From NCBI GenBank assembly GCA_018829185.1, contig JAHJUI010000019.1, forward strand, positions 5,757-69,756: a stretch of 64,000 nt of DNA. The letters run 5' to 3'. The notes beneath the pieces are model-generated. The model saw only the letters and a program-made list of their open reading frames with translations, searched no databases and was not told the origin of the DNA. The DNA is from Nanobdellota archaeon (GTDB lineage: Archaea > Nanobdellota > Nanobdellia > SCGC-AAA011-G17 > PNOQ01). The translations under genes were made by a program, and so were the position numbers. Positions 444 to 29,662 of the stretch are shown piece by piece (within the stretch, counting starts at the first letter, position 1; every line of letters begins with the position of its first letter).

Positions 444-567
444 TGGCCCGGACCGGATTTGAACCGGCGACCTTTATCGGAATTTCTTCTCTCGATGTCT
501 GCCAAGTCTGGTTATCAGTTTCACCCTCAATTGAGTCGAGTGCTCTACCAGGCTAAGCCACCGGGCC
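444..567 (-). tRNA. intron-containing tRNA (124 nt; isotype unresolved, candidate anticodon-loop CTCAATT)
   Basis: Minus-strand read: GGCCCGG-TG-GCTT-AGCCTGGTAG-AGC...GCCGG-TTCAAAT-CCGGT-CCGGGCC-A. Acceptor stem is 7 perfect bp, the D-arm and the T-loop TTCAAAT are canonical, discriminator A is followed by TTTT. Helix CTCGA/TCGAG encloses 41 nt (loop plus roughly 34-nt intron) and 22 nt lie between it and the T-arm, so there is a long insert or a second intron. Confidence 0.7.
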
Positions 568-3251: not shown

Positions 3252-3320
3252 AGTTTTGTTGAAATTAGTTTTTTTATAAAGTTTATGTTTTTTAATTATT
3301 TTGGAAGAAAAATGATTTAT

Positions 3321-3872
3321 TTATCCGAATAGATTGCTAAGAAATTTCATAAACTTAGTCCATAAACTTCCAGATATACACTCGCTATTAATGCATAAAT
3401 TACTATCGCACTCAAAATTATTATCGCAAACAAAATCTGCTTTTTTCTGAACAATGAACTCTTGTTCATCTGAGCAATAATTACCAGATTTTCTATACCC
3501 AAAAGGGTAACATTTCTTATTCAAAGGGCACCCTTGACAAATTAAAATCTCTTCTTCTTCATCAATGTCTTCAGGGAGTTCAACGGGTTCTTCTTCAGGA
3601 ACTAATTTTATACAAGCTCCATCTTCACAACCATTTGAACATTCAATTGCTTTTATTTGTTGAAAATCATCTTCACAATAATACTCATAGACTTGATTTG
3701 CCATTTGCATCTCGCCACAGTGGTCTTCAAGTTTTTCACCATTCCATAGAATGCTTCCTTTTTTGTAAAAATCTACTCCAGCTTCATTATCAATGCAATC
3801 CTGTGCAGATACAAACACAGCTAAGCTAAGCAAACTTAATATTGCAATTGACAGAATTATTTTTTGTTTCAT
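3321..3872 (-). CDS. secreted cysteine-rich protein, hypothetical
   Basis: Signal peptide (MKQKIILSIAILSLLSLAVFVSA) and more than 20 Cys in CxxC / C-x-C patterns. Confidence 0.4.
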   Translation of the reverse strand: MKQKIILSIAILSLLSLAVFVSAQDCIDNEAGVDFYKKGSILWNGEKLEDHCGEMQMANQVYEYYCEDDFQQIKAIECSNGCEDGACIKLVPEEEPVELPEDIDEEEEILICQGCPLNKKCYPFGYRKSGNYCSDEQEFIVQKKADFVCDNNFECDSNLCINSECISGSLWTKFMKFLSNLFG

Positions 3873-3981
3873 TTTAATATATATAATTGGAAAAGGGTAT
3901 AAAAAGCTTTTTATTTAAGGTAACCAAGATTTTTTATCTTTTTACATTATAGAAAAGCAAAGTTTTTATAAATTTTATGTT

Positions 3982-4827: not shown

Positions 4828-4966
4828 ATAATGGGTTTGATATTTGTTTTTATAAATCTTATGGCAGCCAAGATTTTTTATCTTTTAATTTGTCTGGTAA
4901 GTATTTTGTCATAACATAATTTAATCCATGTTTAGCTAAAGCTTGTTGTTTTTTAAATTTTTTGGT

Positions 4967-5114
4967 TTAACATCGGAATTTAACGGTTCCGAAACCTTGC
5001 AGGTTTCTCCACCCAAATCGCCTTCGGAGACTTCGTTAAATTCCTGTTAGTTTCTTCAGAATACTTGGAAGGATTGATTTTTAGTGCAACGATGCCGTAG
5101 GCAAAAAATCAAAG
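4967..5114. repeat. structured repeat module A, copy 1 (hairpin with ATTTAAC...GTTAAAT ends, then TGTTAGTT and ...GCAAAAAATCAAAG)
   Basis: ttaacatcggaatttaacg [49-nt centre] cgttaaattcctgttagtt ... tagtgcaacgatgccgtaggcaaaaaatcaaag. Related copies at 12742-12941 and 13711-13857. The 11-bp outer stem is ggaatttaacg/cgttaaattcc. Confidence 0.6.
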
Positions 5115-5159
5115 TAATTTCAGGGGCGTATTCAATCAAGCGAACACAGTGAGCAATCA

Positions 5160-5340
5160 AGAATAAGCATCAAGGGGCAATTTTCGTCCGTTCGTCGTTC
5201 GTGGGGGAATTCCGTTTTTTGCTTCTTTTTTTTAAAAAAGAAGATTTTAGAGGGGGCTTTTATTTTGGTTCTTTTTCTAAAAGAACGGGTGGGAGAGAAG
5301 CGAGGGCGGGAAGTTTGGGGCGAGAAAACTATTTTCCGAT
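5160..5340. repeat. repeat module B, copy 1 (GC-richer; palindrome cttcttttttttaaaaaagaag)
   Basis: Inverted, diverged copy of 12543-12735. Shared blocks agttttctcgcccc, aaaagccccctc, cggaattccccc, aaaattgcccc and cccctgaaatt lie in the same order with similar spacing. Confidence 0.5.
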
Positions 5341-5342
5341 AT

Positions 5343-5352
5343 ATTTATAAAT
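5343..5352 (+). promoter_or_regulatory. candidate archaeal TATA box (tttataaata) about 26-35 nt upstream of the 5378 start
   Basis: Identical 10-mer tttataaata also sits at the same spacing upstream of the TBP gene (32974-32983). Confidence 0.35.
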
Positions 5353-5377
5353 ATTTGATTATATTTGTATTAGTAAT

Positions 5378-6292
5378 ATGACAATCTTCAAAAACTCAAC
5401 TAATAAACTCAACAGAATTAAACAATTATCTTTTAAGTTAGAGAAAGAGATTCAAGATTTGACAGAGAAAAATTTAAGTGATATTTTTGGATTACAAATA
5501 GTTAAATCAGAATTTTCTTTAAATGGATTAAGAATAGATACTCTTGCTTATGATAATGAAAATAATAGTTTTGTTATAATTGAATATAAACGAGATAAAA
5601 ATTTTAGTGTTATAGATCAAGGGTATGCTTATCTTTCTTTAATGCTTAATAACAAAGCAGATTTTATTTTGGAATATAATGAGAATTGCGATAGAAATTT
5701 GAAAAGAGAAAATGTTGATTGGTCGCAATCAAGAGTTTTATTTGTTTCTCCTGCTTTTTCAAAATATCAACAACAAGCGATTAATTTTAAGGATTTGCCT
5801 ATTGAATTGTGGGAAATATCAAGATATGAAAATGATTTAATCCAATATACAAGATTAAGGTCGCATGAAAATTCTGAATCAATAAACAAGATAAGTAAGA
5901 AAAGCGATGTTGTTGAAAAAGTAAGCAGTGAAGTAAAAGTTTATACTGAAGAAGACCATTTAAGCCATTGTTCAGAAGAAATTAAATCACTATATAATGA
6001 ATTAAAAAATCAAATTCTATCTATCGATGAAAATATTGAAGTAATTCCAAAAAAGAAATATATTGCGTTTAAATCAGATAGAAATTTTGTAGATATTTTG
6101 CCACAAAAAAGTAAAATAAAGTTTTGGCTTAATTTATCTAAAGGACAGCTTAAAGATGTTGATTCAATCGCAAGAGATGTTTCAAGCGTTGGTCATTGGG
6201 GAAACGGAGATTATGAAGTTTCATTCTCAAATTCTGAAGAATTGCCTGTTTTACTATCATTGATTAAACAAAGTTATGAGAAAAATAAATAG
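5378..6292 (+). CDS. hypothetical protein with N-terminal PD-(D/E)xK-like nuclease fold
   Basis: RIDTLAYD...SFVIIEYKRD gives a D...(E)xK arrangement. The C-terminal ~120 aa (IAFKSDRNFVDILPQKSKIKFW...GHWGNGDYEV) looks like a separate uncharacterised domain. It is the first gene inside the repeat-flanked island. Confidence 0.45.
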   Translation: MTIFKNSTNKLNRIKQLSFKLEKEIQDLTEKNLSDIFGLQIVKSEFSLNGLRIDTLAYDNENNSFVIIEYKRDKNFSVIDQGYAYLSLMLNNKADFILEYNENCDRNLKRENVDWSQSRVLFVSPAFSKYQQQAINFKDLPIELWEISRYENDLIQYTRLRSHENSESINKISKKSDVVEKVSSEVKVYTEEDHLSHCSEEIKSLYNELKNQILSIDENIEVIPKKKYIAFKSDRNFVDILPQKSKIKFWLNLSKGQLKDVDSIARDVSSVGHWGNGDYEVSFSNSEELPVLLSLIKQSYEKNK

Positions 6293-6300
6293 GGGTTAAA

Positions 6301-6450
6301 ATGGATTCAAAAAATATCACATTGCGAGTAAATTCTAAAGTTTATGATAGATACAGAGAACTTTGCAAGAAGAAAGGCTTATTAGTTTCTAGGCAGGTTG
6401 AAATAATGATGGAAGAACAATTAAAAAAAGAGGATGGAAACAATGAGTAA
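6301..6450 (+). CDS. small ribbon-helix-helix (CopG-like) protein, 49 aa (not in ORF track)
   Basis: My translation: MDSKNITLRVNSKVYDRYRELCKKKGLLVSRQVEIMMEEQLKKEDGNNE. A beta-strand (ITLRV) followed by two helices is the RHH pattern. Its stop overlaps the start of the RM gene (ATGAGTAA at 6443-6450). Confidence 0.5.
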   Translation: MDSKNITLRVNSKVYDRYRELCKKKGLLVSRQVEIMMEEQLKKEDGNNE

Positions 6451-9400
6451 AGAAAATTCTCTTTTCAAAGAAGCTACAATTAAAAGATTAGTTTCTAATG
6501 TTAATTTAACTGCTAAACATAAAAAAGCCGTAAACAAATGGTTAGATTATTTTAATAGTGGAAAATTAGAAAATGAAAAACAAGCATATATAGAATTTGC
6601 TAACATCATTCTTAGAGATTTATTAGATTATGACATCAGTCTTGAAGGTCTTAAACACGAAGAAGAAAACATAGAATTTTTATTTAAGAAAGATGGTAAT
6701 AATCTTATTTGTTTTGAAGCAAAAGGAGCAAAGACTAAAGACTTATGGGCTTATCAAGGAAGAGATAAAAAATCAAGAGAAACTCCAGTTAATCAAATAA
6801 ATTCTTATTTGTATGATAAAATAATTCCATTTGGCATTTTAACAAATTATAGATTATTTGTTTTATTTGATCGTAATGAAGGCAGTAAAAAATATCATCT
6901 AATTGATTTTACAGAATTAACTAAAGAAGATAAACTAAAAGAATTTATTGCTCTTTTCTCAAGAGAACAAGTAGAAAAAGGATTTATTACCGAAGTAATC
7001 CAACAATCCATTGTTGAAGAAAGAGAATTTACTAAAGAGTTCTATAAATTATATCACGAAACAAGGTTAATGCTAATTAAAGAATTTGAAGAAAATTCAG
7101 GGATTAGTAGAGAGGCTTCTGTTCATTTTGCACAATTATATCTTAATAGATTAATGTTTGTATTTTTTGCAGAAGATACTGGAAAAATTGATAAGAGAAT
7201 TATAGAAGAGAGGGTTATCAAAACATTAGATAACATTCATCTATTTTCATCAAATTCCTCAAATATTTCCAATGTTTTAGTTGGCTTGTTTAATGACTTG
7301 GATAAAGGAAGTGATTTTCCAGTTAAATTATTTGGGTTTAATGGTGGTTTGTTTAAACATCCAATTCCGCCAAAAATATTTTTTAAAGACTTTAGAGATG
7401 ATAAATTTTTCAAAGATGTAAATCAAAACTCTAAACTAAAGAAGAAAGAATTAGAATTAAACGACAATGAAAAAGAAGTATTTCACAAATACAAAAATAG
7501 GATTAGTCCAGTAATAAAAAATATTTTGATAATGGATTCTTTTGATTTCAATTCTGAAGTTAATGTAAATATTTTAGGTCATATTTTTGAGCAATCTATT
7601 TCCGATATTGAAGATTTGAAGACTGACAAAAGTTCTCGAAGAAAGAAAGAAGGAATATTTTATACTCCTGAATACATTACTGACTACATTTGCAGAAATA
7701 CAATTATAACTTATTTATCTAAGAAAGGAATTAATTCAGTTCCTGAATTAATAAAAGAATATGCTGAGAACATTGAAGAGTTGGAAGAGAAGTTTAAAGC
7801 AATTAAAATATTAGATCCTGCTTGCGGTTCTGGTGCATTCTTGATTAAAGCTACTGATATTATGCTTGAGATTTTCAGAGCAATTCAAGAGTTTAAGCAA
7901 AGCGAAGGAGAATATGAAGCAAAAAAAGGATTAAAAAAGAAAAGCAATGCAAAAGGACAATTAGTATTAGAAAAATGGAATGAAGAAGCAGAAGCAAGAG
8001 AAATAATCGAGAATAGTATTCATGGAGTAGATATTAACGAAGAATCTGTTGAGATAACAAAACTTTCTTTATTCTTAAAGATGGCTAGAAAGAATAGAAA
8101 GCTTACAGATTTATCAAATAATATAAAACAAGGAAACAGCTTAATCAATGATTCAGAAGTTGCAGGAGACTTGGCATTTGACTGGGATAAAGAATTTCCA
8201 TTCAAGTTTGATGTTGTTATTGGGAATCCTCCGTATGTTTTTGCAAGAGAAAAAGTATCTCAAGAAGAAAAAGATTATTATAAAAAATATTATGATTCTG
8301 CTGATTATCAGGTGAACACCTATCTGCTTTTTATCGAAAAAACAATAAGTCTATTAAAAGATAATGGAACTTATGGTTTAATTGTTCCAAATGCTTGGTT
8401 AATGGTTTATTCTGGAAAAGGATTAAGAAAGTGCATATTAGACACTTGTAAATTAAACCAGATAATAAATTTAGAGGGTTTTTCTTTTGATGATGTAAGT
8501 GTTGAAACAATAATTATACTTGCAGAAAAGAAAAAAACTGATAAAAGTACTTTTAAGGTATACTTAAACAATGGAAAAGAGTTCGTATTTTCTCATAAAA
8601 AAAATCAGTCTGAGTTCACTAAAAGTAAAGGTTTTGAATTTAAAATTTTTTCTGATGAAACTAGCACATCATTAACTGAAAAAATAAAGAATGGTTCAGT
8701 TATTCTTGATTCAATTGTACAGATTAAAGCAGGATTGCAAGCATACGAAAAAGGAAAAGGTAATCCCAAGCAATCTGCTAAAGATGTTAAAGAAAGACCA
8801 TATGATTATAATTATAAGTTTGATTTACAAACACACAAATATCTTGATGGTAAGGATGTAGGTAGATATTTTGTTTCTTGGTCTGGACTATATTTAAAAT
8901 ACGGCGAACACTTAGCAGCACCAAGAACTTTTAATTTATTTGATGGTAAGAAAATTATAATCCGAGAAATAACAGGGAGATATCCTAAAAGCATTATTGC
9001 TACATATAGTGAGGAACTATATCTATATAATAGGAGTAATATTGCTATTATTGAGAAAGAAAATAAAAAAATATCATTAAAATATATATTATCTGTTCTT
9101 AACAGTTCTTTAATTTCTTATTACTTTATGAAAAATACTGCAAAGTCGGTTAGAAAGATGTTTCCAAAGGTCATTCTAAAAGATTTACGATTATTTCCGT
9201 TTAAAGAGCTTAATATAGAAGAGCAAAAACCATTTATAGAGAAAGCAGACTTAATGCTAAATCTGAACAAAGAATTCTATGACAAAAAGGATAAATTCTT
9301 CAACAGAATAAAAAAGTCTTTTAATTTAGAAAAATTAAACAAGAAACTTGATTCTTTCTATGAATTGGAATTTAATGATTTTGTTAAAGAAATTGAAAAA

Positions 9401-9589
9401 TTAAGCAAAAAGAAACTTTCATTAAAAGAACAAGACGAATGGGAAGATTACTTCAATGAATATAAAAAAGATTTATCAAATTTAAAGAACAATATTGAAA
9501 AAACTGACAACGAAATTAATCAGATGGTTTACAAACTATATGGTTTATCTAAAGAGGAGATACAGATAATTAAGGAGAGTTTGAGATGA
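6434..9589 (+). CDS. type IIG restriction-modification enzyme (N-terminal PD-ExK endonuclease, gamma-class N6-adenine methyltransferase, C-terminal target-recognition region)
   Basis: LLDYD...ICFEAKGAKTKD (D...EXK) at the N-terminus. ILDPACGSGAFL (SAM motif I) and VVIGNPPYVFAR (motif IV, NPPY) in gamma order. About 450 aa follow the NPPY motif, enough for a TRD. Size of 1051 aa fits MmeI/Eco57I-like single-chain enzymes. Confidence 0.8.
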   Translation: METMSKENSLFKEATIKRLVSNVNLTAKHKKAVNKWLDYFNSGKLENEKQAYIEFANIILRDLLDYDISLEGLKHEEENIEFLFKKDGNNLICFEAKGAKTKDLWAYQGRDKKSRETPVNQINSYLYDKIIPFGILTNYRLFVLFDRNEGSKKYHLIDFTELTKEDKLKEFIALFSREQVEKGFITEVIQQSIVEEREFTKEFYKLYHETRLMLIKEFEENSGISREASVHFAQLYLNRLMFVFFAEDTGKIDKRIIEERVIKTLDNIHLFSSNSSNISNVLVGLFNDLDKGSDFPVKLFGFNGGLFKHPIPPKIFFKDFRDDKFFKDVNQNSKLKKKELELNDNEKEVFHKYKNRISPVIKNILIMDSFDFNSEVNVNILGHIFEQSISDIEDLKTDKSSRRKKEGIFYTPEYITDYICRNTIITYLSKKGINSVPELIKEYAENIEELEEKFKAIKILDPACGSGAFLIKATDIMLEIFRAIQEFKQSEGEYEAKKGLKKKSNAKGQLVLEKWNEEAEAREIIENSIHGVDINEESVEITKLSLFLKMARKNRKLTDLSNNIKQGNSLINDSEVAGDLAFDWDKEFPFKFDVVIGNPPYVFAREKVSQEEKDYYKKYYDSADYQVNTYLLFIEKTISLLKDNGTYGLIVPNAWLMVYSGKGLRKCILDTCKLNQIINLEGFSFDDVSVETIIILAEKKKTDKSTFKVYLNNGKEFVFSHKKNQSEFTKSKGFEFKIFSDETSTSLTEKIKNGSVILDSIVQIKAGLQAYEKGKGNPKQSAKDVKERPYDYNYKFDLQTHKYLDGKDVGRYFVSWSGLYLKYGEHLAAPRTFNLFDGKKIIIREITGRYPKSIIATYSEELYLYNRSNIAIIEKENKKISLKYILSVLNSSLISYYFMKNTAKSVRKMFPKVILKDLRLFPFKELNIEEQKPFIEKADLMLNLNKEFYDKKDKFFNRIKKSFNLEKLNKKLDSFYELEFNDFVKEIEKLSKKKLSLKEQDEWEDYFNEYKKDLSNLKNNIEKTDNEINQMVYKLYGLSKEEIQIIKESLR

Positions 9590-10320
9590 ATCAGGATATT
9601 TCTCAAAAAATATTTCAGCAAGCAATAGATTTATGGATTAAACCTGAAATGGATAAAAGAAAATCTTTGAAAAGATTGCCAAAAGATTTTAAATTAAGAA
9701 GTGCTCAAATATTGTTTTCTTTGGATAGAGGTTGGAATAAGGTAAGGCTTAATGAAGAAGTTAAAGCAGTTGCTAAATGCAAAATCAATTGTGCAAAAAA
9801 TAAAGGAGATGCAATTTATGAAAAGGATATAGATGAAATTGAATCTATTAATCTAACTGAAAAAGATCCAAATTGTGCGCATATCACTTTATTATTATTT
9901 AAGAATAATTGGGTAATTTCATTTGATTTTGCATATAATAAGAAAAGAATTAAAGAGCATATAGATGTAGCTAAAGAATTTTTTGAGAGTGCCAAAGATA
10001 ATCTAGAAAAGAAGAGATTAAGACCATTTTTTGAAAATTCTTTTGCTTGTGCAGAACTTTCAGCAAAGGCTGTTTTACTTCAATTGCCAGATAAAGAGAT
10101 TTTACAAGGTAAGGATCATTCAACGAGAATTAATAAGTTTAAAAACTGGGCTAGTTTAGGCAATGTTAAACAAGAGCATTCAGAGATATTAGAAAGACTG
10201 AATCAACTCAGATCTTCTGCAAGATATTTATGTTCTACTGAATTTAAGAAAGAAAAACCAAAAGAGATTATATCTAAATTAAGCGAAATGATAAATTTTG
10301 CAGAGAGTAGGATAAAATGA
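9586..10320 (+). CDS. hypothetical protein, all-alpha C-terminal half (RM-linked)
   Basis: ATGA overlap with the RM gene at 9586-9589. No catalytic motif is confidently recognised. The C-terminal region (SAKAVLLQLPDKEILQGKDHSTRINKF) is helical. Confidence 0.45.
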   Translation: MNQDISQKIFQQAIDLWIKPEMDKRKSLKRLPKDFKLRSAQILFSLDRGWNKVRLNEEVKAVAKCKINCAKNKGDAIYEKDIDEIESINLTEKDPNCAHITLLLFKNNWVISFDFAYNKKRIKEHIDVAKEFFESAKDNLEKKRLRPFFENSFACAELSAKAVLLQLPDKEILQGKDHSTRINKFKNWASLGNVKQEHSEILERLNQLRSSARYLCSTEFKKEKPKEIISKLSEMINFAESRIK

Positions 10321-11099
10321 GTGATTTTCAACAAGTAAAAAATGTGGCAAAGAATTTTGTTAAAGAAAATAAAGAGTTTTTTGATAGATTTGAGAATGAA
10401 ATTGATGATTTGACTATTGGCAATTATTTTGATTTGTATTTGGGTAGTAAGGGAATCACTGCATTGAACACTGAAACAGAATTTGATAAGATGTATGATG
10501 ATGCTTTAGAAAAATTTCATAATGATAAAGAAAATTTACAAGATATAGAAAAATTGTTAATAGAGTTTCTTGATTTCTTAGTTTGGTTAAAAAAACAACA
10601 GGTCATTTTTAATGTTGACATTTCTGAACGTAAACAGTTACATAAAAATGCACTAGAGTATTCCAACACAATTAATAGAATTTATTTGAACAAAAATCTG
10701 GATGGAAAAGATAAGATTGAGATTTTGCTATTTTATTATTGTTCTCTTCAAGAGATATTTAAGAATGTTGTTCAAGAAGAACTGCTTTTGAATATTTGGA
10801 AACAAGGAAAAACTGATGTTTGTGATTTAAGAAAGAAACATATACAATTAGGTGATTTCAAAAATATAATTGAGAAATATGAAAAAAATAACAAACTATC
10901 GGATGGAATAAATAAGATATTTGATGTTGAATTAAGGAATAAAACACTTCATGCTGATTATTCTGTTAATAATGATGAAATTAAATATGGTTCAAAAAGT
11001 TTAAAAATAACTGATTTACAAAATAAAATAATTAAATTAGGAGTAAGTTTGCAGTTTTTTGTTTTATTTTACCTAAGACTATTTAAGGAATCTGATTAA
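10317..11099 (+). CDS. putative HEPN-domain protein (RNxxxH motif), Abi-like
   Basis: DVELRNKTLHADYSVN carries R-N-x3-H, the HEPN RNase signature as in the AbiD/AbiF (Abi_2)-type families. ATGA overlap with the upstream gene at 10317-10320. Confidence 0.5.
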   Translation: MSDFQQVKNVAKNFVKENKEFFDRFENEIDDLTIGNYFDLYLGSKGITALNTETEFDKMYDDALEKFHNDKENLQDIEKLLIEFLDFLVWLKKQQVIFNVDISERKQLHKNALEYSNTINRIYLNKNLDGKDKIEILLFYYCSLQEIFKNVVQEELLLNIWKQGKTDVCDLRKKHIQLGDFKNIIEKYEKNNKLSDGINKIFDVELRNKTLHADYSVNNDEIKYGSKSLKITDLQNKIIKLGVSLQFFVLFYLRLFKESD

Positions 11100-11100
11100 A

Positions 11101-12543
11101 ATGGCTCATCTCCTGACTAAATCTAAATATATGCAAGGACAACAATGTCTTAGATTATTATGGCTTTCTACAAATAAACTTCTTCCTGAAAAAACTATTG
11201 CTGAAAAGCAAAAGCTTGAACAAGGGCATGAATTTGAAGAATATGCTCATAAATTATTTCCTGATGCTGTAAATCTTGCTGAATTGGGATTCAATGAAAA
11301 TTTAGAAAAAACTAAAGAGTTAATAGAACAGAAAAAGATAATTTTTGAAGCAGGATTAAAAGTTGATGATATGTTTTTGAGAGCTGATGTTTTAGAGCCA
11401 ACAGAAAACGGCTGGAATCTATATGAGATTAAAGCATCCACAAAACAAAAACCTGAACATATCCCTGATTTAGCTTTTCAAAAATTTGTTTGTGAAAAAG
11501 CAGGATTAAACATAGAAAAAAGCTTTGTCTTACACTTAAATAAAGAGTTTATCAAAAATGGAAAGATAAACTCTAAAGAATTATCAACAATAGAAGAAGT
11601 TACTGAAAAAGTAAATCTTATTGATGATGTTGAGAATAATTCTAAATTATATCTTGAAATAATGAATTCAAAAGAAAAGCCTGAAATTTTAATCTCTAAA
11701 AACTGCAATTCCCCATATCCCTGTGCTGTTAAAAAAGATTGTTGGGGAACTTTACCAAAAAATAATGTTTTGCATTTGACAAATTGGAGAGTTTATTGGA
11801 ATCTTTTTGATGATGGAATTATTGACTTAAAAGATGTCCCAAAAGGCACAAAACTAACTCCAAAGGATGAAATCATCTTAGAAGGAGAAACCCAAGAAAA
11901 AATAATGATTTCAAAAGAACATATTAAACATTTTCTGAATTCTTTAAAATATCCTCTTTGTCATTTGGATTTTGAAACTTTTGATACTGCTGTTCCGATT
12001 TTTGATAAATCAAGACCATGGCAAAAAATGCCATTTCAGTATTCTGTTCATATTCAGCCAGAAAATGGAGAAATTATTCATTATGAATATTTAGCTGAAG
12101 ATGGAGAAGATCCAAGACCTAAACTTCTTGAAAATCTAAAAGAACATGCAAAAGGTTCAGGAAGTGTTATAGTTTTTAATAAATCATTTGAAATAAATGT
12201 CTTAAACAAATTAGCAGAAGATTTTCCAGAGCATAAAGATTGGATTCAAAATGTTTTAGACAGAATTATAGATTTAGCTTTTCCATTTCAAAGTTTTTAT
12301 TATTATAATCCATCTCAAAAAGGAAGTTATTCAATAAAGAAAGTCTTACCAGCAATTACTGGAAAAGGGTATACTGGCTTAGAAATTGGGAATGGTGGAG
12401 ATGCAAGTGCATTATATTTTTACAGCCATGTAAAAAAAGAGATTGATGGAAAAGAAGATATAAGAAAAAATCTCTTGAAATATTGTTGTTTAGATACAGA
12501 AGGAATGGTTTGGATTATTGATGAATTAAGGAAGTTAGTTTGA
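11101..12543 (+). CDS. Cas4/RecB-like PD-(D/E)xK nuclease with Cys cluster, fused to a DEDDy-type 3'-5' exonuclease domain (DUF2779-like architecture)
   Basis: N-terminal half: GQQCLRLLW (first Cys), RADVLEP...NLYEIKASTK (D...ExK), AFQKF, CNSPYPCAVKKDC (C-x5-C-x5-C). C-terminal half: LDFETFD (exo I, DxE), VIVFNKSFEINVL (exo II-like), YCCLDTEGM (exo III, YxxxD). It starts 1 nt after the upstream stop. Confidence 0.6.
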   Translation: MAHLLTKSKYMQGQQCLRLLWLSTNKLLPEKTIAEKQKLEQGHEFEEYAHKLFPDAVNLAELGFNENLEKTKELIEQKKIIFEAGLKVDDMFLRADVLEPTENGWNLYEIKASTKQKPEHIPDLAFQKFVCEKAGLNIEKSFVLHLNKEFIKNGKINSKELSTIEEVTEKVNLIDDVENNSKLYLEIMNSKEKPEILISKNCNSPYPCAVKKDCWGTLPKNNVLHLTNWRVYWNLFDDGIIDLKDVPKGTKLTPKDEIILEGETQEKIMISKEHIKHFLNSLKYPLCHLDFETFDTAVPIFDKSRPWQKMPFQYSVHIQPENGEIIHYEYLAEDGEDPRPKLLENLKEHAKGSGSVIVFNKSFEINVLNKLAEDFPEHKDWIQNVLDRIIDLAFPFQSFYYYNPSQKGSYSIKKVLPAITGKGYTGLEIGNGGDASALYFYSHVKKEIDGKEDIRKNLLKYCCLDTEGMVWIIDELRKLV

Positions 12544-12735
12544 GTTTTCTCGCCCCCTCTATAAAAATATCGAACGAAGTGAGTGAAAATGTCCGAAGGA
12601 CTAAAAGCCCCCTCGTTATATTATTTCTTTTTCCGCAGAAAAAGGCACTCTGTCCGTAGGACTCGGAATTCCCCCCGTCGTTTTCGTTTTTAGTTCGTTT
12701 AGTTAAAATTGCCCCCTTCGTTAGCCCCTGAAATT
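12543..12735. repeat. repeat module B, copy 2 (inverted relative to 5160-5340)
   Basis: See 5160-5340. The reverse complement of copy 1 aligns block by block and the copy ends with cccctgaaatt. Confidence 0.5.
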
Positions 12736-12741
12736 ATTGAG

Positions 12742-12941
12742 TTTAACATCGGAATTTAACGAAGTTGAATTTTGAGAGCTGGAGAGAGCCGAGGCAAACC
12801 ACGGCGAGCGACCTCCAAAATTCAATTTGGGTGGAGAAACTTGCAAGGTTTCGGAACCGTTAAATTCCTGTTAGTTGCGTCGGAGCGTAGCGGAGACCGA
12901 GGGATAGTGCAACGATTTTTGCGAAGCAAAAAATCACGAAG
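12742..12941. repeat. structured repeat module A, copy 2 (same outer ends as copy 1; central ~97 nt inverted and expanded)
   Basis: tttaacatcggaatttaacg [centre] cgttaaattcctgttagtt...gcaaaaaatcacgaag. The centre contains atttgggtggagaaacttgcaaggtttcggaacc, the reverse complement of the copy-1 centre ggttccgaaaccttgcaggtttctccacccaaat. Confidence 0.6.
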
Positions 12942-12949
12942 AGTAAGTT

Positions 12950-13660
12950 TTAAGCGGTTGTAACTTTTAATATCTGTTTAACAAAGTAGTCTGGCTCTCG
13001 TTTTCCTCTATAAGCGGGATGTGGTCCAATATAAATAGACTTTCCCATATCTAACAACCTCTTTAATAAAAATTTTTTGTATTTGAAAGAATTGCTCTGA
13101 AATACAATTATATTTGGATTGAAGATTTTGACTTCTTCAATGAAAAAATTTAGTTCAATCTTTTGATCTTGGTGAATTCTATTTTCTCCACCTGTTCTCT
13201 TTTTTCTATTTATTGAAACAAATTTGTAATAGTTTGTTAAAGCAATATAAGATAATGGATTAATTGGAGGTAATTTTTCTTGATATTGCAGTGCTTTCTG
13301 ACAAGATAATATATTTTTGAGGTTGTTCCAATAATTCTGCAAATTAAGATCATCTTTTAGAAAAAATATTGCAGTAAAATATGTTCCTGCGATATGAGGA
13401 TTATGTTTTGATACTGGTTTTTCTTCTATTGCTTGTCTTCTTTCTTCAAAAGATTGAATTCCTCCAATTTTTTCATCTGAACCTATATCTAATCCGACAA
13501 TTAAAATCTTCTTAGAGTTACCATAGTTTGAACCAACATATGGGAAAGTCGGAAATTTAATTCGAGGACTGTTTTTTAAGCATCCAGTTTTTTTATCTAT
13601 ATCAAATTTCTTAAATAAATCTTGATACTCATTTTTTAACTCAGATTGTATCATAATCAA
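12950..13660 (-). CDS. hypothetical protein (weak resemblance to the UDG-superfamily motif pattern)
   Basis: KILIVGLDIGSDE resembles UDG family-4 motif A (h-V-G-E-x-P-G-x-x-E) and GPHPAYRG resembles motif B (HPSP). The resemblance is weak. It sits alone between repeat copies A2 and A3. Confidence 0.35.
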   Translation of the reverse strand: MIMIQSELKNEYQDLFKKFDIDKKTGCLKNSPRIKFPTFPYVGSNYGNSKKILIVGLDIGSDEKIGGIQSFEERRQAIEEKPVSKHNPHIAGTYFTAIFFLKDDLNLQNYWNNLKNILSCQKALQYQEKLPPINPLSYIALTNYYKFVSINRKKRTGGENRIHQDQKIELNFFIEEVKIFNPNIIVFQSNSFKYKKFLLKRLLDMGKSIYIGPHPAYRGKREPDYFVKQILKVTTA

Positions 13661-13710
13661 TTAAACGAGAACCAGACTTTATAATTTTACCGCTTAAAAC
13701 TTATTGCAAC

Positions 13711-13857
13711 TAACATCGGCATTAACAGAAGTCGGCGTAGCCGATTTGGACGAAGAAGTCTGCAAGACTTCGTAGTCTGTTAATGCCTGTTAGTTTCTCC
13801 CGAATACTTGGAGGGATTGATTTTTAGTGCAACGATGCCAAAGGCAAAAAATCAAAG
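13711..13857. repeat. structured repeat module A, copy 3 (covarying stem cattaacag/ctgttaatg)
   Basis: taacatcggcattaacag [centre] ctgttaatgcctgttagtt...tagtgcaacgatgccaaaggcaaaaaatcaaag. The outer stem sequence differs from copies 1 and 2 but stays complementary. The inner hairpin gaagtc-TGCAA-gacttc corresponds to gaaacc-TTGCA-ggtttc. Confidence 0.6.
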
Positions 13858-14050
13858 TTGCAAATTCTCGTTCATATGATTGAGAGGACACTTTAGGACG
13901 GTGGGTTCCGTCTGTAAAACCTATTAAATAATAGAAATTGTTGTTGTATTTTGTCTTGTGAGCCGCCGCCTTTTTTGCTTCTTTTTTTCTAAAAAAGAAG
14001 AGGGGGAGTTTCCGCTCCATCTAAGGAATAAAACACCGCGTAAGGAACAA
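13858..14050. repeat. repeat module B, copy 3
   Basis: Shares ttttttgcttctttttttctaaaaaagaaga..ggggg with copy 1. An inverted copy lies at 18540-18700 with shared blocks ttgcaaattctc, gagaggacacttta (14/14), agaaattgttgt and gtgagccgcc. Confidence 0.45.
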
Positions 14051-14095
14051 TAATGGAAGTTTTGAGTTCTAAATTCATATTTCCTTCTTGCCCAG

Positions 14096-14422
14096 ATGTG
14101 CAACATAAAAAGATTTAAAAAGAACCAAGTAAATATATTTATTATGCCTGATGAAAAAATTGCCAGAGCAATAAAAGCAAAAGTAAGAAGAGAAATGTTA
14201 CAGATACTTTGTCAAAAGGAAAAAATACCTGTTCATGAAATAGCAAATAAATTGAACATAACAGAGTCTTCTGCATCCAAACATTTGAAATTATTGTATG
14301 ATTTAGGTTTTGTAGATTTTGAAGAGAAACATCCAGAAAAATTTTATTTTCTTAAAATAAAAGAAATTAGAGAGCTATTTCAGGTCTATAATAAAATTAT
14401 CAAAAAATTAAGAGGTAAATGA
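14096..14422 (+). CDS. ArsR/TrmB-type winged-HTH transcriptional regulator
   Basis: VHEIANKLNITESSASKHLKLLYDLGFV is an HTH. ATGA overlap with the RuBisCO start at 14419-14422. Confidence 0.55.
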   Translation: MCNIKRFKKNQVNIFIMPDEKIARAIKAKVRREMLQILCQKEKIPVHEIANKLNITESSASKHLKLLYDLGFVDFEEKHPEKFYFLKIKEIRELFQVYNKIIKKLRGK

Positions 14423-15888
14423 AAATGAAAAAAGAACATAAACAATTGCTTAAAACACTTAATGAAAAACAACAAGCTTATGTAAACTTGAACTTGCCTG
14501 ACCCAAAAAATGGCGAGTATCTTCTTACAGTCTTTCATTTAGTTCCAAACGAAAAATTAAATATTTTACAAGCAGCTACAGAAGTTGCAGCAGAATCTTC
14601 TACTGGAACAACCTTTAAGGTGCAGACAGAAACCCCTTTTTCCAGAGAAATGAATGCTCTTGTTTATCAACTTGATTTAAAGAAAAATCTTGTATGGATT
14701 GCTTATCCTTGGAGGCTTTTTGACAGGGGAGGAAATGTGCAGAATATTTTGACATATATTGTTGGGAATGTTTTGGGAATGAAAAAAATAAATACTTTAA
14801 AATTATTAGATGTGTGGTTTTCTCCAGTAATGCTTGAGCAGTATGATGGGCCAAGTTATACAATAGATGATATGAGAAAATATTTGGATGTATATGACAG
14901 GCCTATTCTTGGAACCATTGTAAAGCCAAAAATGGGACTTACTTCTGCTGAATATGCAGAGGTGGCTTATGATTTCTGGGCAGGGGGTGGAGATTTTGTT
15001 AAAAATGATGAACCACAAGCAAATCAGGATTTTTGCCCATACGACAAAATGGTAAGATATGTAAAAAAAGCTATGGATAAAGCTGTCAAAGAAACTGGAA
15101 AGAAAAAAGTTCACTCTTTTAATGTTTCAGCAGCTGATTTTGATACTATGATTAAAAGATGTGAAATGATTAGAAATGCAGGTTTTGAACCAGGAAGTTA
15201 TGCGTTCTTAATTGATGGAATCACTGCTGGTTGGACAGCAGTGCAAACTCTTAGAAGAAGATATCCAGACGTATTTATTCACTTTCATAGAGCAGGTCAT
15301 GGAGGGTTTACAAGACCAGAAAATCCAATGGGATTCACAGTTTTGGTTCTGTCTAAATTTGCAAGATTAGCCGGAGTTTCAGGAATTCATACTGGAACTG
15401 CAGGTGTTGGAAAAATGTCTGGAAAGCCAGAAGAAGATGTTGTAGCTGCGCACAATATTTTAAGTTACATAGCAAAAGGACATTTTTTTGAGCAAAGCTG
15501 GGGAAAGATTCCTGAAAAAGATGAAGATGCTTCGAAGCTCGTTCATGAAGATGCAATTCACCATCTTATTTTAGAAGATGACAGCTGGAGAGGAATGAAA
15601 AAATGCTGTCCTATTATCTCTGGAGGATTAAATCCAATGTTATTGAAGCCGTTTATTGATATAATGAATAATACTGATTTTATTACAACAATGGGGGCAG
15701 GTGTTCATGCTCATCCAAGAGGGACTAAAGCTGGTGCAACTGCATTGGTTCAGGCATGCGAAGCTTATCTTAAAAAAATAGATATCAAAGAATATGCTAA
15801 AGACCATCCTGAATTAGCTGAAGCTATCAAGTTTTTTTCAAAAAAACCAAAGGATGTGGAAGTAGCTGAGGAAACTGAAAAGAGTTAA
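14419..15888 (+). CDS. rbcL: ribulose-1,5-bisphosphate carboxylase, large subunit, type III (archaeal)
   Basis: GGGDFVKNDEPQ (GxDFxKxDE), TIVKPKMGLT (carbamylated-Lys region), FIHFHRAGHGG (HRA.H) and the C-terminal GGL..M.. pattern. No small-subunit gene nearby, consistent with form III. Confidence 0.85.
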   Translation: MKMKKEHKQLLKTLNEKQQAYVNLNLPDPKNGEYLLTVFHLVPNEKLNILQAATEVAAESSTGTTFKVQTETPFSREMNALVYQLDLKKNLVWIAYPWRLFDRGGNVQNILTYIVGNVLGMKKINTLKLLDVWFSPVMLEQYDGPSYTIDDMRKYLDVYDRPILGTIVKPKMGLTSAEYAEVAYDFWAGGGDFVKNDEPQANQDFCPYDKMVRYVKKAMDKAVKETGKKKVHSFNVSAADFDTMIKRCEMIRNAGFEPGSYAFLIDGITAGWTAVQTLRRRYPDVFIHFHRAGHGGFTRPENPMGFTVLVLSKFARLAGVSGIHTGTAGVGKMSGKPEEDVVAAHNILSYIAKGHFFEQSWGKIPEKDEDASKLVHEDAIHHLILEDDSWRGMKKCCPIISGGLNPMLLKPFIDIMNNTDFITTMGAGVHAHPRGTKAGATALVQACEAYLKKIDIKEYAKDHPELAEAIKFFSKKPKDVEVAEETEKS

Positions 15889-15930
15889 TAACAAGATCAA
15901 GTTTTCATAGTTCTTCTTTTTTCTTTATAA

Positions 15931-16482
15931 TTGGTGTTAAGAATGAAAAAAGCAATATTTTTAGACAGAGACGGAACATTAATTGAAGATAGTGGTTATG
16001 CTTATAGAATAGAAGATTTAAAAATTTATCCTGGCGTTGTTGAAGGCCTAAAATTATTACAAAACGATTATTTGTTTTTTATTATAACAAACCAATCAGG
16101 AATTGGAAAAGGGTTCTACACAACAAAAGACTTTCATAGATTTAACAATTCTCTTTTAGAACAATTGAGAAACCAAAATATAAGAATAGAAAGAACATAT
16201 TTTTGTCCGCATATTGGTGATTGTAAGTGTAAAAAACCAAGTACAAAATACATAGAAGAAATTGTTTCTGAGTATAGTATTGATTTAGTAGAATCGTGGG
16301 TTATTGGAGATCATCCCTCTGATATTATTATGGGTAAAAATGCTGGTTGCAAAACAGCATACCTTCTTTCAGGGCATGGCACAAAACATTTTCAAGAGCT
16401 TGAATTAAAAAGAATAAAACCAACAATTATTACAGAAGATTTTTTATCTACTGCTAAATCTATTAGAGAATATGAAAACTAA
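15931..16482 (+). CDS. HAD-superfamily phosphatase, GmhB / histidinol-phosphatase-like
   Basis: AIFLDRDGTLIED (DxDGT motif I), IITNQSG (motif II), CPHIGDCKCKKP (GmhB-type Zn site), GDHPSD (motif IV). Confidence 0.65.
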   Translation: MVLRMKKAIFLDRDGTLIEDSGYAYRIEDLKIYPGVVEGLKLLQNDYLFFIITNQSGIGKGFYTTKDFHRFNNSLLEQLRNQNIRIERTYFCPHIGDCKCKKPSTKYIEEIVSEYSIDLVESWVIGDHPSDIIMGKNAGCKTAYLLSGHGTKHFQELELKRIKPTIITEDFLSTAKSIREYEN

Positions 16483-17512
16483 AATAATCAAAATAAATCC
16501 TGAAAAACTAGAGATATCTAAGGTCAAGATAGCGGCAGAAACTTTGAGAAAAGGGGGACTAGTGGCCTTTCCTACTGAAACTGTTTATGGTCTTGGGGCA
16601 GATGCTTTAAACTCGGAAGCTATTAAAAAAATATTTGAAGCGAAGGGAAGACCTATAGATAATCCATTAATAGTTCATATTGCAGATAAAAAAGAAGTTT
16701 ATAGGTTAGCAAGGGAAGTTCCAAGAGAGGCAGAAAAATTAATTAATAAATTTTGGCCAGGTCCTTTGACTATTATTTTGAAAAAGTCTAATATTGTTTC
16801 AGATATTATAACTGCTGGTTTAGATTCTGTAGCAATCAGAATGCCTAATAATAAAATCGCTCTAACATTAATTAAAAAATCTAAAGTTCCCATAGTTGCT
16901 CCATCAGCAAATCTTTCTGGAAAACCAAGTCCTACAATGGCTGAACATGTAATACAAGATTTATATGGGAAGATTGAGATTATTATAGATGGTGGTGAAA
17001 CAGATATTGGTGTTGAATCTACTGTTCTTGATTTAACTACAAATCCTCCAACCTTATTAAGGCCAGGGGGAGTTGATTTAGAAAAACTAAAAAAGGTTTT
17101 AGGCAAAATTAAGATATATCCAATGGTTAAAGGAAAACAGATAAAGAAAATTGCTGTTAAATCGCCGGGAATGAAGTACAGGCATTATGCCCCAAATGCA
17201 AAAGTGATTTTAGTTGAGGGAAAATATGAACGAGTTAAAAATAAAATTCAAGAACTTACAGATAAATACAAGAAGAAAGGGAAAAAGATTGCTATAATGA
17301 CCACTAATAAAAACTATAATTATAAAACAGGTGTAATAAAATTTATCGGAAAAGATTGTGATGTAATTGCTAAAAATTTATTCAAAACTTTTCGGGAATT
17401 TGATAAAGAAAAAGTTGATTTAATTATTGCTGAAGGAGTTAGTGATAATGGGCTAGGGCTTGCTGTAATGAACAGATTGAGAAAAGCTTCCTATAAAATT
17501 ATATGTATCTAA
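16472..17512 (+). CDS. sua5: L-threonylcarbamoyladenylate synthase (Sua5/TsaC, YrdC domain plus Sua5 C-terminal domain)
   Basis: GGLVAFPTETVYGLGADA and the RPLTII..K...D pattern are YrdC-domain hallmarks. About 140 aa of Sua5-type C-terminal domain follow. Confidence 0.85.
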   Translation: MKTKIIKINPEKLEISKVKIAAETLRKGGLVAFPTETVYGLGADALNSEAIKKIFEAKGRPIDNPLIVHIADKKEVYRLAREVPREAEKLINKFWPGPLTIILKKSNIVSDIITAGLDSVAIRMPNNKIALTLIKKSKVPIVAPSANLSGKPSPTMAEHVIQDLYGKIEIIIDGGETDIGVESTVLDLTTNPPTLLRPGGVDLEKLKKVLGKIKIYPMVKGKQIKKIAVKSPGMKYRHYAPNAKVILVEGKYERVKNKIQELTDKYKKKGKKIAIMTTNKNYNYKTGVIKFIGKDCDVIAKNLFKTFREFDKEKVDLIIAEGVSDNGLGLAVMNRLRKASYKIICI

Positions 17513-17547
17513 AATAAATATAGGGGTGTTAAATATTAATATGCAAA

Positions 17548-18426
17548 ATGAAAAAACATAAAATTTTATACACATCAGATATTCATGGAAATGAAGTTCA
17601 ATATTCAAAACTCATACAATATGCTATAAAGGTATCTGCGGACAGCATTATCATTGGGGGAGATATTGCTCCTAAAGGTGGGGCTATTGAAGATTATATT
17701 GAATATCAGAGAAATTTTTTAGAATATCGTTTACCAGAAATGCTACAACCCTTAAAAAAATATTTACCAAATTCTAACTTGTTTTTAATGATGGGAAACG
17801 ATGATTGTGCAGCTAATATGGATGTATTAGAAAATAGCAAATTGTTTAAAGTTATCCATAATAAAAGAATAAAATTAACAGAAGATTTTGAAATAGTGGG
17901 TTATTCTTTTGTACCAATTACCCCATTTGGAATAAAAGATTGGGAAAAATATGATTTAAGCAAAGTTCCAGCGACTTTGAAGAAAAAATATGCTGAAAGA
18001 AAATTAACAAATTATCGGCTTAATGGAATTAAGAGTATCAAAACCAGATGGAAAATATTTCAGTTTGATTCAGGCATGGAAGTACAAGATTCTATTCAAA
18101 AAGATTTGTCAAGAAAAATATTCAGTAAAAATCCTAAGAAAACTGTTTACATTATCCATTCTCCCCCAGATAATACTAAATTAGATATTGTATCAAATAG
18201 AAATCATGTGGGAAGTATGGCGGTAAGATTGTTCATTGAAAAAGAACAACCATATTTAACTTTACATGGACATATTCATGAGACTGTCGATATTTCTGGC
18301 ACTTTTAAACATAATATCAAAAACACTTTATGTTTAACTTCTGGAAATCATAATGTTGGCGAGCAATTGGCAGTATTAGTTTTTGATTTATATAATCCTC
18401 AAGATGTAAGAAGAATAATTATTTGA
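17548..18426 (+). CDS. calcineurin-like metallophosphoesterase
   Basis: ILYTSDIHGN, IIGGDIAPKG, MMGNDDC, IIHSPP and LHGHIHE are the MPE metal-ligand motifs. Confidence 0.7.
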   Translation: MKKHKILYTSDIHGNEVQYSKLIQYAIKVSADSIIIGGDIAPKGGAIEDYIEYQRNFLEYRLPEMLQPLKKYLPNSNLFLMMGNDDCAANMDVLENSKLFKVIHNKRIKLTEDFEIVGYSFVPITPFGIKDWEKYDLSKVPATLKKKYAERKLTNYRLNGIKSIKTRWKIFQFDSGMEVQDSIQKDLSRKIFSKNPKKTVYIIHSPPDNTKLDIVSNRNHVGSMAVRLFIEKEQPYLTLHGHIHETVDISGTFKHNIKNTLCLTSGNHNVGEQLAVLVFDLYNPQDVRRIII

Positions 18427-18539
18427 TAAAACAGAAAAATTTGCGTGTAATGAAATGAAACCTTTTATCCTAGGTTATGCGAAATTTTAATTTCGTGAGT
18501 TTTTTCTTGGTCGGATAAAAGAAGTTTTTCTGTGAGGAC

Positions 18540-18700
18540 AAAGTCCGAGACTATCTATCACGAAGTGATTAAGGCGGCTCACTTATTTTTTACAACAATT
18601 TCTACAATTTAGGGGCGGGTGGTCGGGGGTTTTAAAGTGTCCTCTCCTATATTTCGTTTTTTTCTTTAAAGTTAGAGAATTTGCAATTGTAACTAACAAG
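18540..18700. repeat. inverted, truncated copy of repeat B plus the terminal TGTTAGTT of module A (aactaaca at 18691-18698)
   Basis: Reverse complement reads ttgttagttacaattgcaaattctct...gagaggacacttta...agaaattgttgt...gtgagccgcc, collinear with 13788-13990. It lies 45 bp upstream of the tyrosine recombinase start. Confidence 0.45.
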
Positions 18701-18743
18701 TTATATAGATAAATTTATATATAATTTAGTTATATAAGGATGT

Positions 18744-29582: not shown

Positions 29583-29662
29583 CTTGGCTAGAGCGGTCGA
29601 TTTTCAAAAGAAAAGCCGAAGCTCCAAACCGACTGATCCAGGTTCAAATCCTGGCGTCCCCG
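29568..29662 (+). tRNA. intron-containing tRNA (95 nt; tentatively Glu-UUC with ~21-nt intron at 37/38)
   Basis: GGGGGCG-TA-GTTT-AACTTGGCTAG-AGC-G-GTCGA-TTTTCA[intron]A-CCGAC-TGAT-CCAGG-TTCAAAT-CCTGG-CGTCCCC-G. Acceptor stem has 7 bp with one G-U pair and the T-arm is canonical. Anticodon-stem and intron placement are my inference. Confidence 0.6.

Follow-up and report, generated by a model that had tools for sequence, protein, structure and literature searches.

A probable XerA-linked gene-capture array with folded cassette sites in a Nanobdellota archaeon

Organization of the locus

Contig JAHJUI010000019.1 of a Nanobdellota archaeon (assembly GCA_018829185.1) carries, within the 64,000 nucleotides considered here (positions 5,757 to 69,756 of the forward strand, called the window below and numbered from its first letter), a structured repeat element that alternates with gene cassettes in an array ending beside xerA, a tyrosine recombinase gene. 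The window has about 30% G+C, and the elements are richer in G+C than their surroundings. A sequence-only reading of this DNA had reported three copies of the element, and all three are where it placed them (4972-5114, 12748-12943 and 13715-13857), every one on the + strand and with all the quoted motifs present; neither pattern nor tail-profile searches found a fourth copy anywhere in the 64-kb window. The copies belong to three head-to-tail units (4972-18697), each consisting of an element with three helical parts (P1, P2 and P3), a left inverted repeat, the cargo, a right inverted repeat and a box, ATTGNNNNTAAC.

The array starts directly after C4971, where a chromosomal left half-site ends (TTTTGGTTTAAC, 4960-4971, + strand) that is identical up to TAAC in strains with another array. 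It stops after C18697, within a terminal site (18686-18712, + strand) made of the box that closes unit 3 (ATTGTAACTAAC, 18686-18697) and the chromosomal right half AAGTTATATAGATAA; after the box, the sequence reads AAGTTATATAGATAAATTT.. towards xerA (18744-19562, + strand). The array is consequently flanked by the chromosomal half-site TTTTGGTTTAAC and by AAGTTATATAGATA, and the xerA start codon is 46 nt downstream of the insertion point, TAAC|A (the bar marks the junction).

Cassette 1 (5115-12735, + strand) has the terminal inverted repeats TAATTTCAGGGGC (5115-5127) and GCCCCTGAAATTA (12724-12736) and codes for a DUF5655/NucS-like protein, a type IIG restriction-modification protein (1051 aa), a HEPN protein, an unknown protein and a DUF2779/Cas4-like nuclease, and its unit ends with the box ATTGAGTTTAAC (12736-12747, + strand). 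Its ends share further G-rich blocks, and the same end modules flank different cargo in another locus, L115. Cassette 2 (12944-13702), with the repeats TAAGTTTTAAGCGGT (12944-12958) and ACCGCTTAAAACTTA (13689-13703), holds a single open reading frame (ORF) of 234 aa on the - strand (12950-13654) that has no family match; the box of this unit, ATTGCAACTAAC (13703-13714, + strand), is fully complementary to the start of the copy 2 tail (TGTTAGTTGC). Cassette 3 (13858-18685, + strand), which the sequence-only reading had not mentioned, begins directly after copy 3, has the ends TTGCAAATTCTC..GAGAGGACACTTTA (13858-13900) and TAAAGTGTCCTCTC..GAGAATTTGCAA (18632-18686), and carries genes for an ArsR-type regulator, the large subunit of ribulose-1,5-bisphosphate carboxylase/oxygenase (RuBisCO), a HAD hydrolase, Sua5 and a metallophosphoesterase. 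No integrase or transposase domains were found in the window cassettes.

The RuBisCO large-subunit gene (14419-15888) is thus part of a cassette bounded by elements, and RuBisCO genes also adjoin elements in two other metagenome-assembled genomes (MAGs; L055 4349-5608 and L066 6747-7985). At the cassette ends, the G-rich blocks GGGGCAATTTT, GGGGGAATTCCG and GAGGGGGCTTTTA alternate with T-rich palindromes such as TTTTTGCTTCTTTTTTTCTAAAAAAGAAG (window 5215-5290, 12600-12650 and 13965-14000). Modules of this kind are met with in different phyla, beside cargo that is unrelated, and they are possibly terminators or protein sites.

The folded element and its family

From 5′ to 3′, the parts at each junction are the 12-nt box, P1, P2, P3 and a terminal AG, and the element is 140-230 nt long across the family. 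At the base of P1, TAACA pairs with TGTTA; a conserved TC bulge and an upper stem of 10-12 bp follow, the latter varying by compensatory change, while the interior of P1 is variable and branched. P2 is a short hairpin introduced by GTT, and P3 has a lower stem broken by the bulge AGTGCAACGAT and an upper stem topped by a C-GAA-G triloop. For instance, copy 1 (+ strand) comprises P1 at 4967-5050 with its TC bulge at 4973-4974, P2 at 5053-5073 and P3 at 5074-5112 with AGTGCAACGAT at 5083-5093. This bulge is invariant in all recovered copies by construction, since it was part of the search pattern.

The three window copies share TGTTAGTT and differ in other respects. Copy 2 has a long P1 with an additional interior hairpin and a type 2 tail, and copy 3 has a type 1 tail. 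The proposal of the sequence-only reading that every copy is followed by the same conserved tail applies to copies 1 and 3 (..TAGTGCAACGATGCC..GGCAAAAAATCAAAG) and not to copy 2 (..GATAGTGCAACGATTTTTGCGAAGCAAAAAATCACGAAGAG); more tail types occur in related strains. Copies 1 and 2 have the outer stems ATTTAAC/GTTAAAT, where copy 3 has ATTAACAG/CTGTTAAT, and the inner hairpins gaaacc-TTGCA-ggtttc and gaagtc-TGCAA-gacttc are both found among the window copies. The difference between the hairpins of copies 1 and 2, which had been read as covariation, is largely the result of an inversion: the copy 1 interior is the reverse complement of the interior of copies 2 and 3 (4975-5018 and 12825-12868 are 98% reverse-complementary over 44 nt), with breakpoints exactly at ATTTAAC| and |GTTAAAT. 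We considered this inversion as a regular switch and rejected the idea, as the interior is inverted only in window copy 1 and in L057 out of approximately 64 copies.

A hairpin presenting TGCAA is found in the P1 interior of 41 of 45 distinct copies, compared with 9% in shuffled sequences. TGCAA, which has the self-complementary core TGCA, is displayed twice per element, in the loop of this interior hairpin (4991-5007, 12838-12856 and 13753-13769 in copies 1, 2 and 3) and in the P3 bulge (5083-5093, 12906-12916 and 13826-13836), and in the second element of strain L199 the two TGCAA modules are swapped. The duplication may reflect a loop-loop contact or a dimeric protein site. As to the role of P2 and P3, a binding site for an accessory factor or a single-strand replication signal are our guesses.

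Further copies, a check that the sequence-only reading had named, are numerous outside the window. An exact 21-base pattern spanning two tail motifs, applied to contigs of one genome per species, recovered 114 loci, nearly all of them in MAGs of Woese-, Pace-, Nano-, Aenigm- and Nanohaloarchaeota, that is, of DPANN archaea (named after Diapherotrites, Parvarchaeota, Aenigmarchaeota, Nanoarchaeota as well as Nanohaloarchaeota), and many at contig ends. A tail profile counted 143 copies within the fetched loci, and the element pattern had no match in viral contigs. Because the pattern required two invariant motifs, the family must be wider than sampled.

The covariation that had been proposed from three copies stands at the level of the family. 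In an ungapped alignment of 25 distinct copies, in which a linker takes the place of the variable interior, the named helices are 90.5% paired, compared with 35-58% when the partners are slid; 16 pairs are changed on both sides (101 cells), and none of 500 shuffles reaches any of these measures. Covarying pairs were seen in all four positions of P2, in five of nine of lower P3 and in six of 17 of P1. An earlier run of RNAalifold on a mixed alignment of tails had yielded no pairs, owing to the misalignment of two tail types, and it is superseded by the explicit structure and the ungapped alignment. Additionally, each window copy is more stable than its own shuffles (z = -2.8 to -5.4).

The fold is also specific to one strand. 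In 42 of 45 distinct P1s, and likewise in 71 of 81 tails, the + strand has the more stable fold (mean difference in P1, 7.3 kcal/mol), and G.U-type pairs are far more frequent on it than on the other strand (116 vs 23 in P1; 97 vs 37 in the tails). The inverted interior of window copy 1 makes it one of the three exceptions in P1. GC-closed hairpins have C-GNA-G triloops 52 times and the complementary form 7 times, and neither GNRA nor UUCG tetraloops are enriched. Mini-hairpins of the d(GCGAAGC) type are far more stable as DNA, where their stability is exceptional, than as RNA, and the triloop excess is therefore a hint that the fold may act as single-stranded DNA. Rfam 15 gave no matches at the elements, either at gathering thresholds or at permissive E values of up to 10.

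Some variants of the element were also recorded. Truncated forms, ATTGNNNNTAA|TTCCTGTTAG, are present in other loci. In L041, an insertion-sequence-like element with a transposase C-terminal ORF lies inside the P1 hairpin (3640-3900, - strand), and four unrelated MAGs (L041, L018, L059 and L104) share its junction, ..GGGACGGCTTCC|CCTGTTAGTT; this points to an insertion sequence for which the hairpin is a target.

Cassettes as units

In all 26 loci with two or three copies, the copies lie on one strand. They are separated by 82-7753 nt, mostly 0.5-4 kb, and the DNA between elements starts straight after ..AG and stops straight before the next box. The cassette ends are perfect inverted repeats of 10-17 nt whose sequence is cassette-specific. 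An anchored inverted repeat of at least 10 nt was found in seven of 21 adjacent pairs of elements by strict parsing, and in approximately 11 by eye, compared with 1.2% of random pairings. End modules of 100-240 nt recur across phyla around unrelated cargo. A stem closed by both flanks of one element was also considered and rejected, as the complementary partners flank the cassette and not the element.

The tail type tracks the right-hand cassette and the box tracks the left-hand one. When box and tail belong to the same cassette, a mean of 4.06 of 5 positions pair (n = 9, a small sample), compared with 2.96 for box and tail of the same element (n = 56) and 3.0 for random pairs.

Across the family, 70 ORFs lie between elements, and they include nucleotidyltransferase/HEPN pairs, NUDIX proteins, radical SAM or viperin-like enzymes, type IIG restriction-modification proteins, methionyl-tRNA synthetase, peroxiredoxin and encapsulated ferritin. 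The cargo is made up of genes with accessory and defence functions, and the 70 ORFs contained no integrase, transposase or Rep.

xerA and the chromosomal site

The recombinase of the window (272 aa) is a XerA equivalog according to NCBIfam NF040815 (260.7 bits, with a cutoff of 220). It has the Pfam domains Phage_integrase and SAM_4, and its nearest solved relatives are the archaeal XerA structures 5hxy and 4a8e. The sequence-only reading had looked to an integrase of the IntI type; the protein falls below the integron-integrase model TIGR02249 (238.5 bits, with a cutoff of 265, in a two-stretch match) and lacks the IntI-specific additional domain, and it is the only recombinase nearby in the 64 kb of the genome that were seen.

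Across the family, a tyrosine recombinase is the most common neighbouring protein family, lying within a few kb of the element in 12 loci. In all 12, the element has xerA downstream of it on its own strand. In eight of 11 loci with xerA, the box after the cassette end precedes the xerA ATG by 19-101 nt, and five of these boxes are at -98 to -101. Modules in which a dif site, the target of Xer recombinases, stands beside xerA have been noted in some archaea (PMC5357621, review).

Joining the two half-sites, we infer an empty dif-like site TTTTGGTTTAAC|AAGTTATATAGATA, of which 4960-4971 would be the left arm; its sequence would read TTTTTTGGTTTAAC|AAGTTATATAGATAAA, and the duplex site would be TTTTGGTTTAACAAGTTATATAGATA. 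A published example from Thermococcales is TTTGGATATAA-TGTACC-TTATATCTAAA (PMC4640148, Table 2), and the two arms of the reconstructed site agree with it in 8 of 11 positions each (the left arm with TTTGGATATAA and the right arm, TTATATAGATA, with TTATATCTAAA; PMC4640148, Table 2). The canonical palindromic dif, TTGAATATAA N6 TTATATTCAA, has no match in the window.

Other observations concern the surroundings of xerA. Immediately 3′ of the gene is a free-standing LAGLIDADG-type ORF of 345 aa (19608-20645, + strand), which is present in all strains of the species seen. In DPANN-like lineages that have no element, a palindrome, ATAAC-TA-GTTATATG, is found upstream of xerA, and in four such loci (L116, L122, L125 and L133) the motif CGATAAC-TA-GTTATATGCG lies approximately 120 nt upstream of the gene; this motif resembles the right half of the terminal site of the window and is a candidate for the native XerA site. 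A metagenome scan that started from xerA returned mostly high-GC bacterial loci with IntI-like recombinases. High-GC contigs with IntI/Xer-like recombinases often start only 150-220 nt upstream of the gene (L123, L145, L148, L152, L155, L157, L165, L167, L169 and L177), probably because assemblies break at bacterial integron arrays.

Replacement of the array between strains

Assemblies of the same species were recovered by exact look-up of the peptidyl-prolyl isomerase and XerA proteins of the window. The array of the window is also present in L195, L197, L198, L201, L204 and L207-L211, whereas two independent assemblies, L199 (JGI) and L200 (ENA), have a different one. In these, the flanks are nearly identical to those of the window (98.9-99.8% on the left and 98.4% on the right), and only 1.2 kb lies between them: two unrelated small cassettes replace the three of the window, each with its own element (of a different tail type), its own inverted repeats of 14-17 nt and its own box. 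The RuBisCO-bearing cassette 3 is wholly missing at this locus in both assemblies.

The junctions agree to the base. On the left, they read ..GGTTTAAC|ATCGG.. (in longer form ..AAATTTTTTGGTTTAAC|ATCGG..) and, on the right, ..TAAC|AAGTTATATAG.. (..TAAC|AAGTTATATAGATAAATTTATA..), TAACA being the motif common to all junctions. At the right junction, cassette and chromosome share TAACA alone. Elements and cassettes are equal in number in both states (three and two), and the array closes with a bare box. The junctions, the equal counts and the bare end box together assign the element to its right-hand cassette and make the box the 3′ end of a cassette.

The same comparison showed that a 660-nt segment of the window (3303-3962), with a 183-aa ORF that has no family match (3321-3872, - strand), is missing in L199, where the flanks are otherwise 99-99.8% identical.

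A proposed capture system

The unit architecture, the covarying and strand-specific fold, the same-strand arrays, the linkage to xerA and the replacement of whole arrays at TAAC|A point to a XerA-linked gene-capture array similar to integrons or to integrative mobile elements exploiting Xer (IMEX), in which each repeat would be the recombination module of one mobile cassette. We consider this reading probable (approximately 0.65). The cassette-borne site probably folds as single-stranded DNA, as the loop types hint.

A mechanism can be proposed along these lines. The host XerA would cut the basal helix of P1 at TAAC. Strands would be exchanged at this motif either between the chromosomal site and a cassette in circular form or from one box to another, the latter leading to cassette excision. 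The substrate would be the folded + strand in single-stranded form. In it, pairing of the box with the first part of the tail would give a 10-bp arm, G(A/C)AACTAACA / TGTTAGTT(T/G)C; the TC bulge would occupy the central region, and the upper stem of P1, which is variable, would serve as the second arm. In a circular cassette, whose junction would have the form ..ACCGCTTAAAACTTATTGCAACTAAC|ATCGGAATTTAACGAAGTTGAATT.., the terminal inverted repeats could pair as a further stem, P0, producing a four-way junction of P0, P1, P2 and P3. With DNA parameters, reconstructed circular junctions do fold as four-way junctions (z = -8.1 and -9.2), the P0 stem being present by construction. The inversion in copy 1, with breakpoints at the inner TAAC and GTTA, and the truncated ATTGNNNNTAA|TTCCTGTTAG forms would be expected from occasional recombination at secondary TAA(C) cores. 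The likeness of TAGTGCAAC to TAGTATTAC, the nick site of circular Rep-encoding single-stranded DNA viruses, was set aside because no Rep gene was seen.

Going further, the arrays could be an undescribed platform, common to several DPANN phyla, in which XerA inserts and excises cassettes at its own dif-like site via a single-stranded four-way junction, in parallel to integrons, and by which defence systems, toxin-antitoxin pairs and RuBisCO move between lineages. We put this forward tentatively, at somewhat less than even odds. Literature searches on archaeal IMEX elements, DPANN cassettes and DPANN structured RNAs returned no description of such a system, which is not proof that it is unpublished.

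Several observations weigh against recombination by XerA through a folded single strand. G.U-type pairs, which would be more usual in RNA than in DNA, make up approximately 6% of all pairs. XerA is no more than a candidate for the enzyme, and its linkage to the element is confined to some lineages: in the search that started from xerA, only two of approximately 20 low-GC metagenome loci had an element upstream of the gene. The centre of the reconstructed site has 4 nt between TAA and TTA, whereas published archaeal dif sites have 6, and its likeness to dif is in AT-rich sequence, in which a match to a single 11-mer carries no information. The orientation of the cargo is near random (40 ORFs co-oriented and 30 opposite), unlike in integrons, and the housekeeping gene Sua5 in cassette 3 is odd for a dispensable cassette. 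The left junction can be placed only within TTTAACATCGG; since ATCGG is common to all copies, it is not sharp, and homologous exchange between elements could contribute. Finally, neither an empty site nor circular cassettes were observed, the contigs of 980-1153 nt that hold cassette 2 alone being linear fragments broken inside elements.

Alternative explanations

The sequence-only reading had offered two identities for the repeats, attC-like recombination sites or small structured RNAs or terminators. The latter finds support in the strong covariation, the abundance of strand-specific G.U wobble pairs, the T5 run after some copies and a G+C content above the 30% background, like that of many archaeal RNA genes; the conserved TGCAA loop would suggest a tertiary contact or a protein site, although the constancy of AGTGCAACGAT was imposed by the search. 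A family of non-coding RNAs, either small RNAs or cis-acting leaders or trailers of cassette transcripts that stand at cassette borders by chance, nevertheless appears unlikely. Rfam had no match even at the permissive threshold, and no conserved promoter was found, the left side of an element being whichever cassette end precedes it. The genes before copies 1 and 3 are on the opposite strand, which excludes read-through from them, and the loops are C-GNA-G triloops of the DNA type rather than GNRA or UUCG. Moreover, an RNA would leave unexplained the exchange points in the basal helix, the cassette-specific inverted repeats that abut the elements and the fixed site by xerA. These repeats, often long and subterminal as well as terminal, with repeated G-rich blocks in every cassette and with end modules that are conserved across phyla while the cargo differs, might instead be the ends of non-autonomous transposons that insert at a fixed distance from a target element, as Tn7-like elements do at attTn7. 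We regard this as quite unlikely: there are no transposases among the 70 cargo ORFs and no target-site duplications visible at the junctions, the inverted repeats differ between cassette classes, so that one transposase could not recognise all of them, and the equal numbers of elements and cassettes in both strain states, with a bare box at the end of the array and no spare element, fit an element owned by the cassette and not by the target.

Reshuffling by homologous recombination between dispersed repeats, in an ordinary hypervariable island with no dedicated site-specific system, could draw on the identical stretches of 20-80 nt between elements and would agree with the fact that assemblies break at them. 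It is very unlikely in our view, as the right junction shares only the five bases TAACA and the position of the junction relative to xerA is kept across distant lineages, and it would explain neither the strand-specific structure nor the cassette-specific inverted repeats. As for attC-like sites, the elements do separate cassettes in same-strand arrays that lie beside xerA and differ between closely related strains, whereas their membership in the integron family is not supported. Archaeal integrons have been reported, Nanoarchaeota included (PMC9668308), and a cluster of canonical attC sites lacking its integrase, as reported for archaeal MAGs, would account for the hairpins between cassettes and for the fit of copies 1 and 2 to the consensus RYYYAAC/GTTRRRY. 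This fit, on which the sequence-only reading had relied, extends to both inner boxes in only 12 of 49 distinct copies and to the outer 5′ box in 15 of 49, and the invariant outer 3′ GTTAGTT never fits. The elements of 140-230 nt with a conserved P2-P3 tail, the adjacent recombinase, which is a XerA under the TIGR02249 cutoff and without the extra domain, and the multigene cassettes of up to 7.6 kb with their own promoters and mixed orientation are further departures, and canonical integrons are hardly credible here.

Relation to known systems and possible significance

The array nonetheless shares much with integrons. In both, promoter-independent gene units on the same strand are split by hairpins that are defined by structure and variable in sequence, with one folded site per cassette (here in both strain states), an exchange point in the basal helix at ..AAC and conserved extrahelical bases on one strand; both adjoin a tyrosine recombinase gene, here one closely related to IntI, vary between strains and carry cargo rich in toxin-antitoxin, defence and accessory genes. 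By contrast, the recombinase here is a housekeeping-type XerA without the IntI insertion, encoded downstream on the same strand and not divergently. Two further conserved helices, along with an invariant bulge, set apart the site of 140-230 nt, which does not keep the attC consensus; the exchange is placed at the outer TAAC|A and not at the inner ATTTAAC/GTTAAAT. The cassettes have their own terminal inverted repeats and promoters, mixed orientation and up to five or six genes.

The IMEX that integrate at dif, such as the phages CTX, TLC and VGJ of Vibrio and LME-1 of Legionella, are likewise integrase-less elements in tandem; they are arranged at a host Xer site, to which the dif-like site here would correspond, with an intact right half-site at one end of the array. 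For CTX, one strand is exchanged on a folded single-stranded hairpin of approximately 150 nt whose central region is bulged, and the arm of box and tail, the TC bulge and the upper arm of P1 proposed above would resemble the layout of its attP(+), as well as that of integron attC sites. The present case differs in its archaeal host with XerA as the single recombinase, in its units, which are small gene cassettes and not phages or plasmids, and in its folded site, which is intact at every junction and belongs to a family conserved across phyla. With the archaeal XerA/dif site for dimer resolution, the reconstructed empty site shares the position beside xerA, as reported for some archaea (PMC5357621), and similar arms, each matching Thermococcales in 8 of 11 positions; it differs from this site in its 4-nt rather than 6-nt centre and in being filled by cassettes. 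The pdif modules of Acinetobacter plasmids are also discrete gene modules bounded by Xer-type sites in varied contexts, but pdif is a plain 28-bp duplex in alternating orientation, whereas the site described here is long, folded and in a single orientation.

DPANN genomes are tiny, and traits such as form III RuBisCO and defence systems are spread patchily among them as a result of lateral transfer. If the capture reading is correct, the site-specific array by xerA in MAGs of Woese-, Pace-, Aenigm- and Nanohaloarchaeota would be a vehicle for lateral transfer, and it would account for DPANN assemblies breaking at the xerA-linked locus. Additionally, two bacterial paradigms, attC recombination and the exploitation of Xer via folded single-stranded DNA, would reach Archaea, each in a new form, and this would suggest multiple origins of integron-like gene capture from Xer-type recombinases. 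The system is small (a 150-nt site, a 28-nt target and a 272-aa recombinase) and directly testable in vitro.

Other features of the window

Two tRNA genes, at 444-567 (- strand, 124 nt) and 29568-29662 (+ strand, 95 nt), are found by Rfam and missed by ARAGORN, which is consistent with intron-bearing archaeal tRNAs. An origin of the window in a DPANN-type archaeon is supported by these tRNA genes and by exact-protein look-ups, which led to contigs of Nanoarchaeota-type MAGs. Additionally, a 108-nt direct repeat (50629-50736 and 51451-51558, 76% identity, 822 nt apart) lies within an ORF of 763 aa (50131-52422) and is probably an internal protein repeat.

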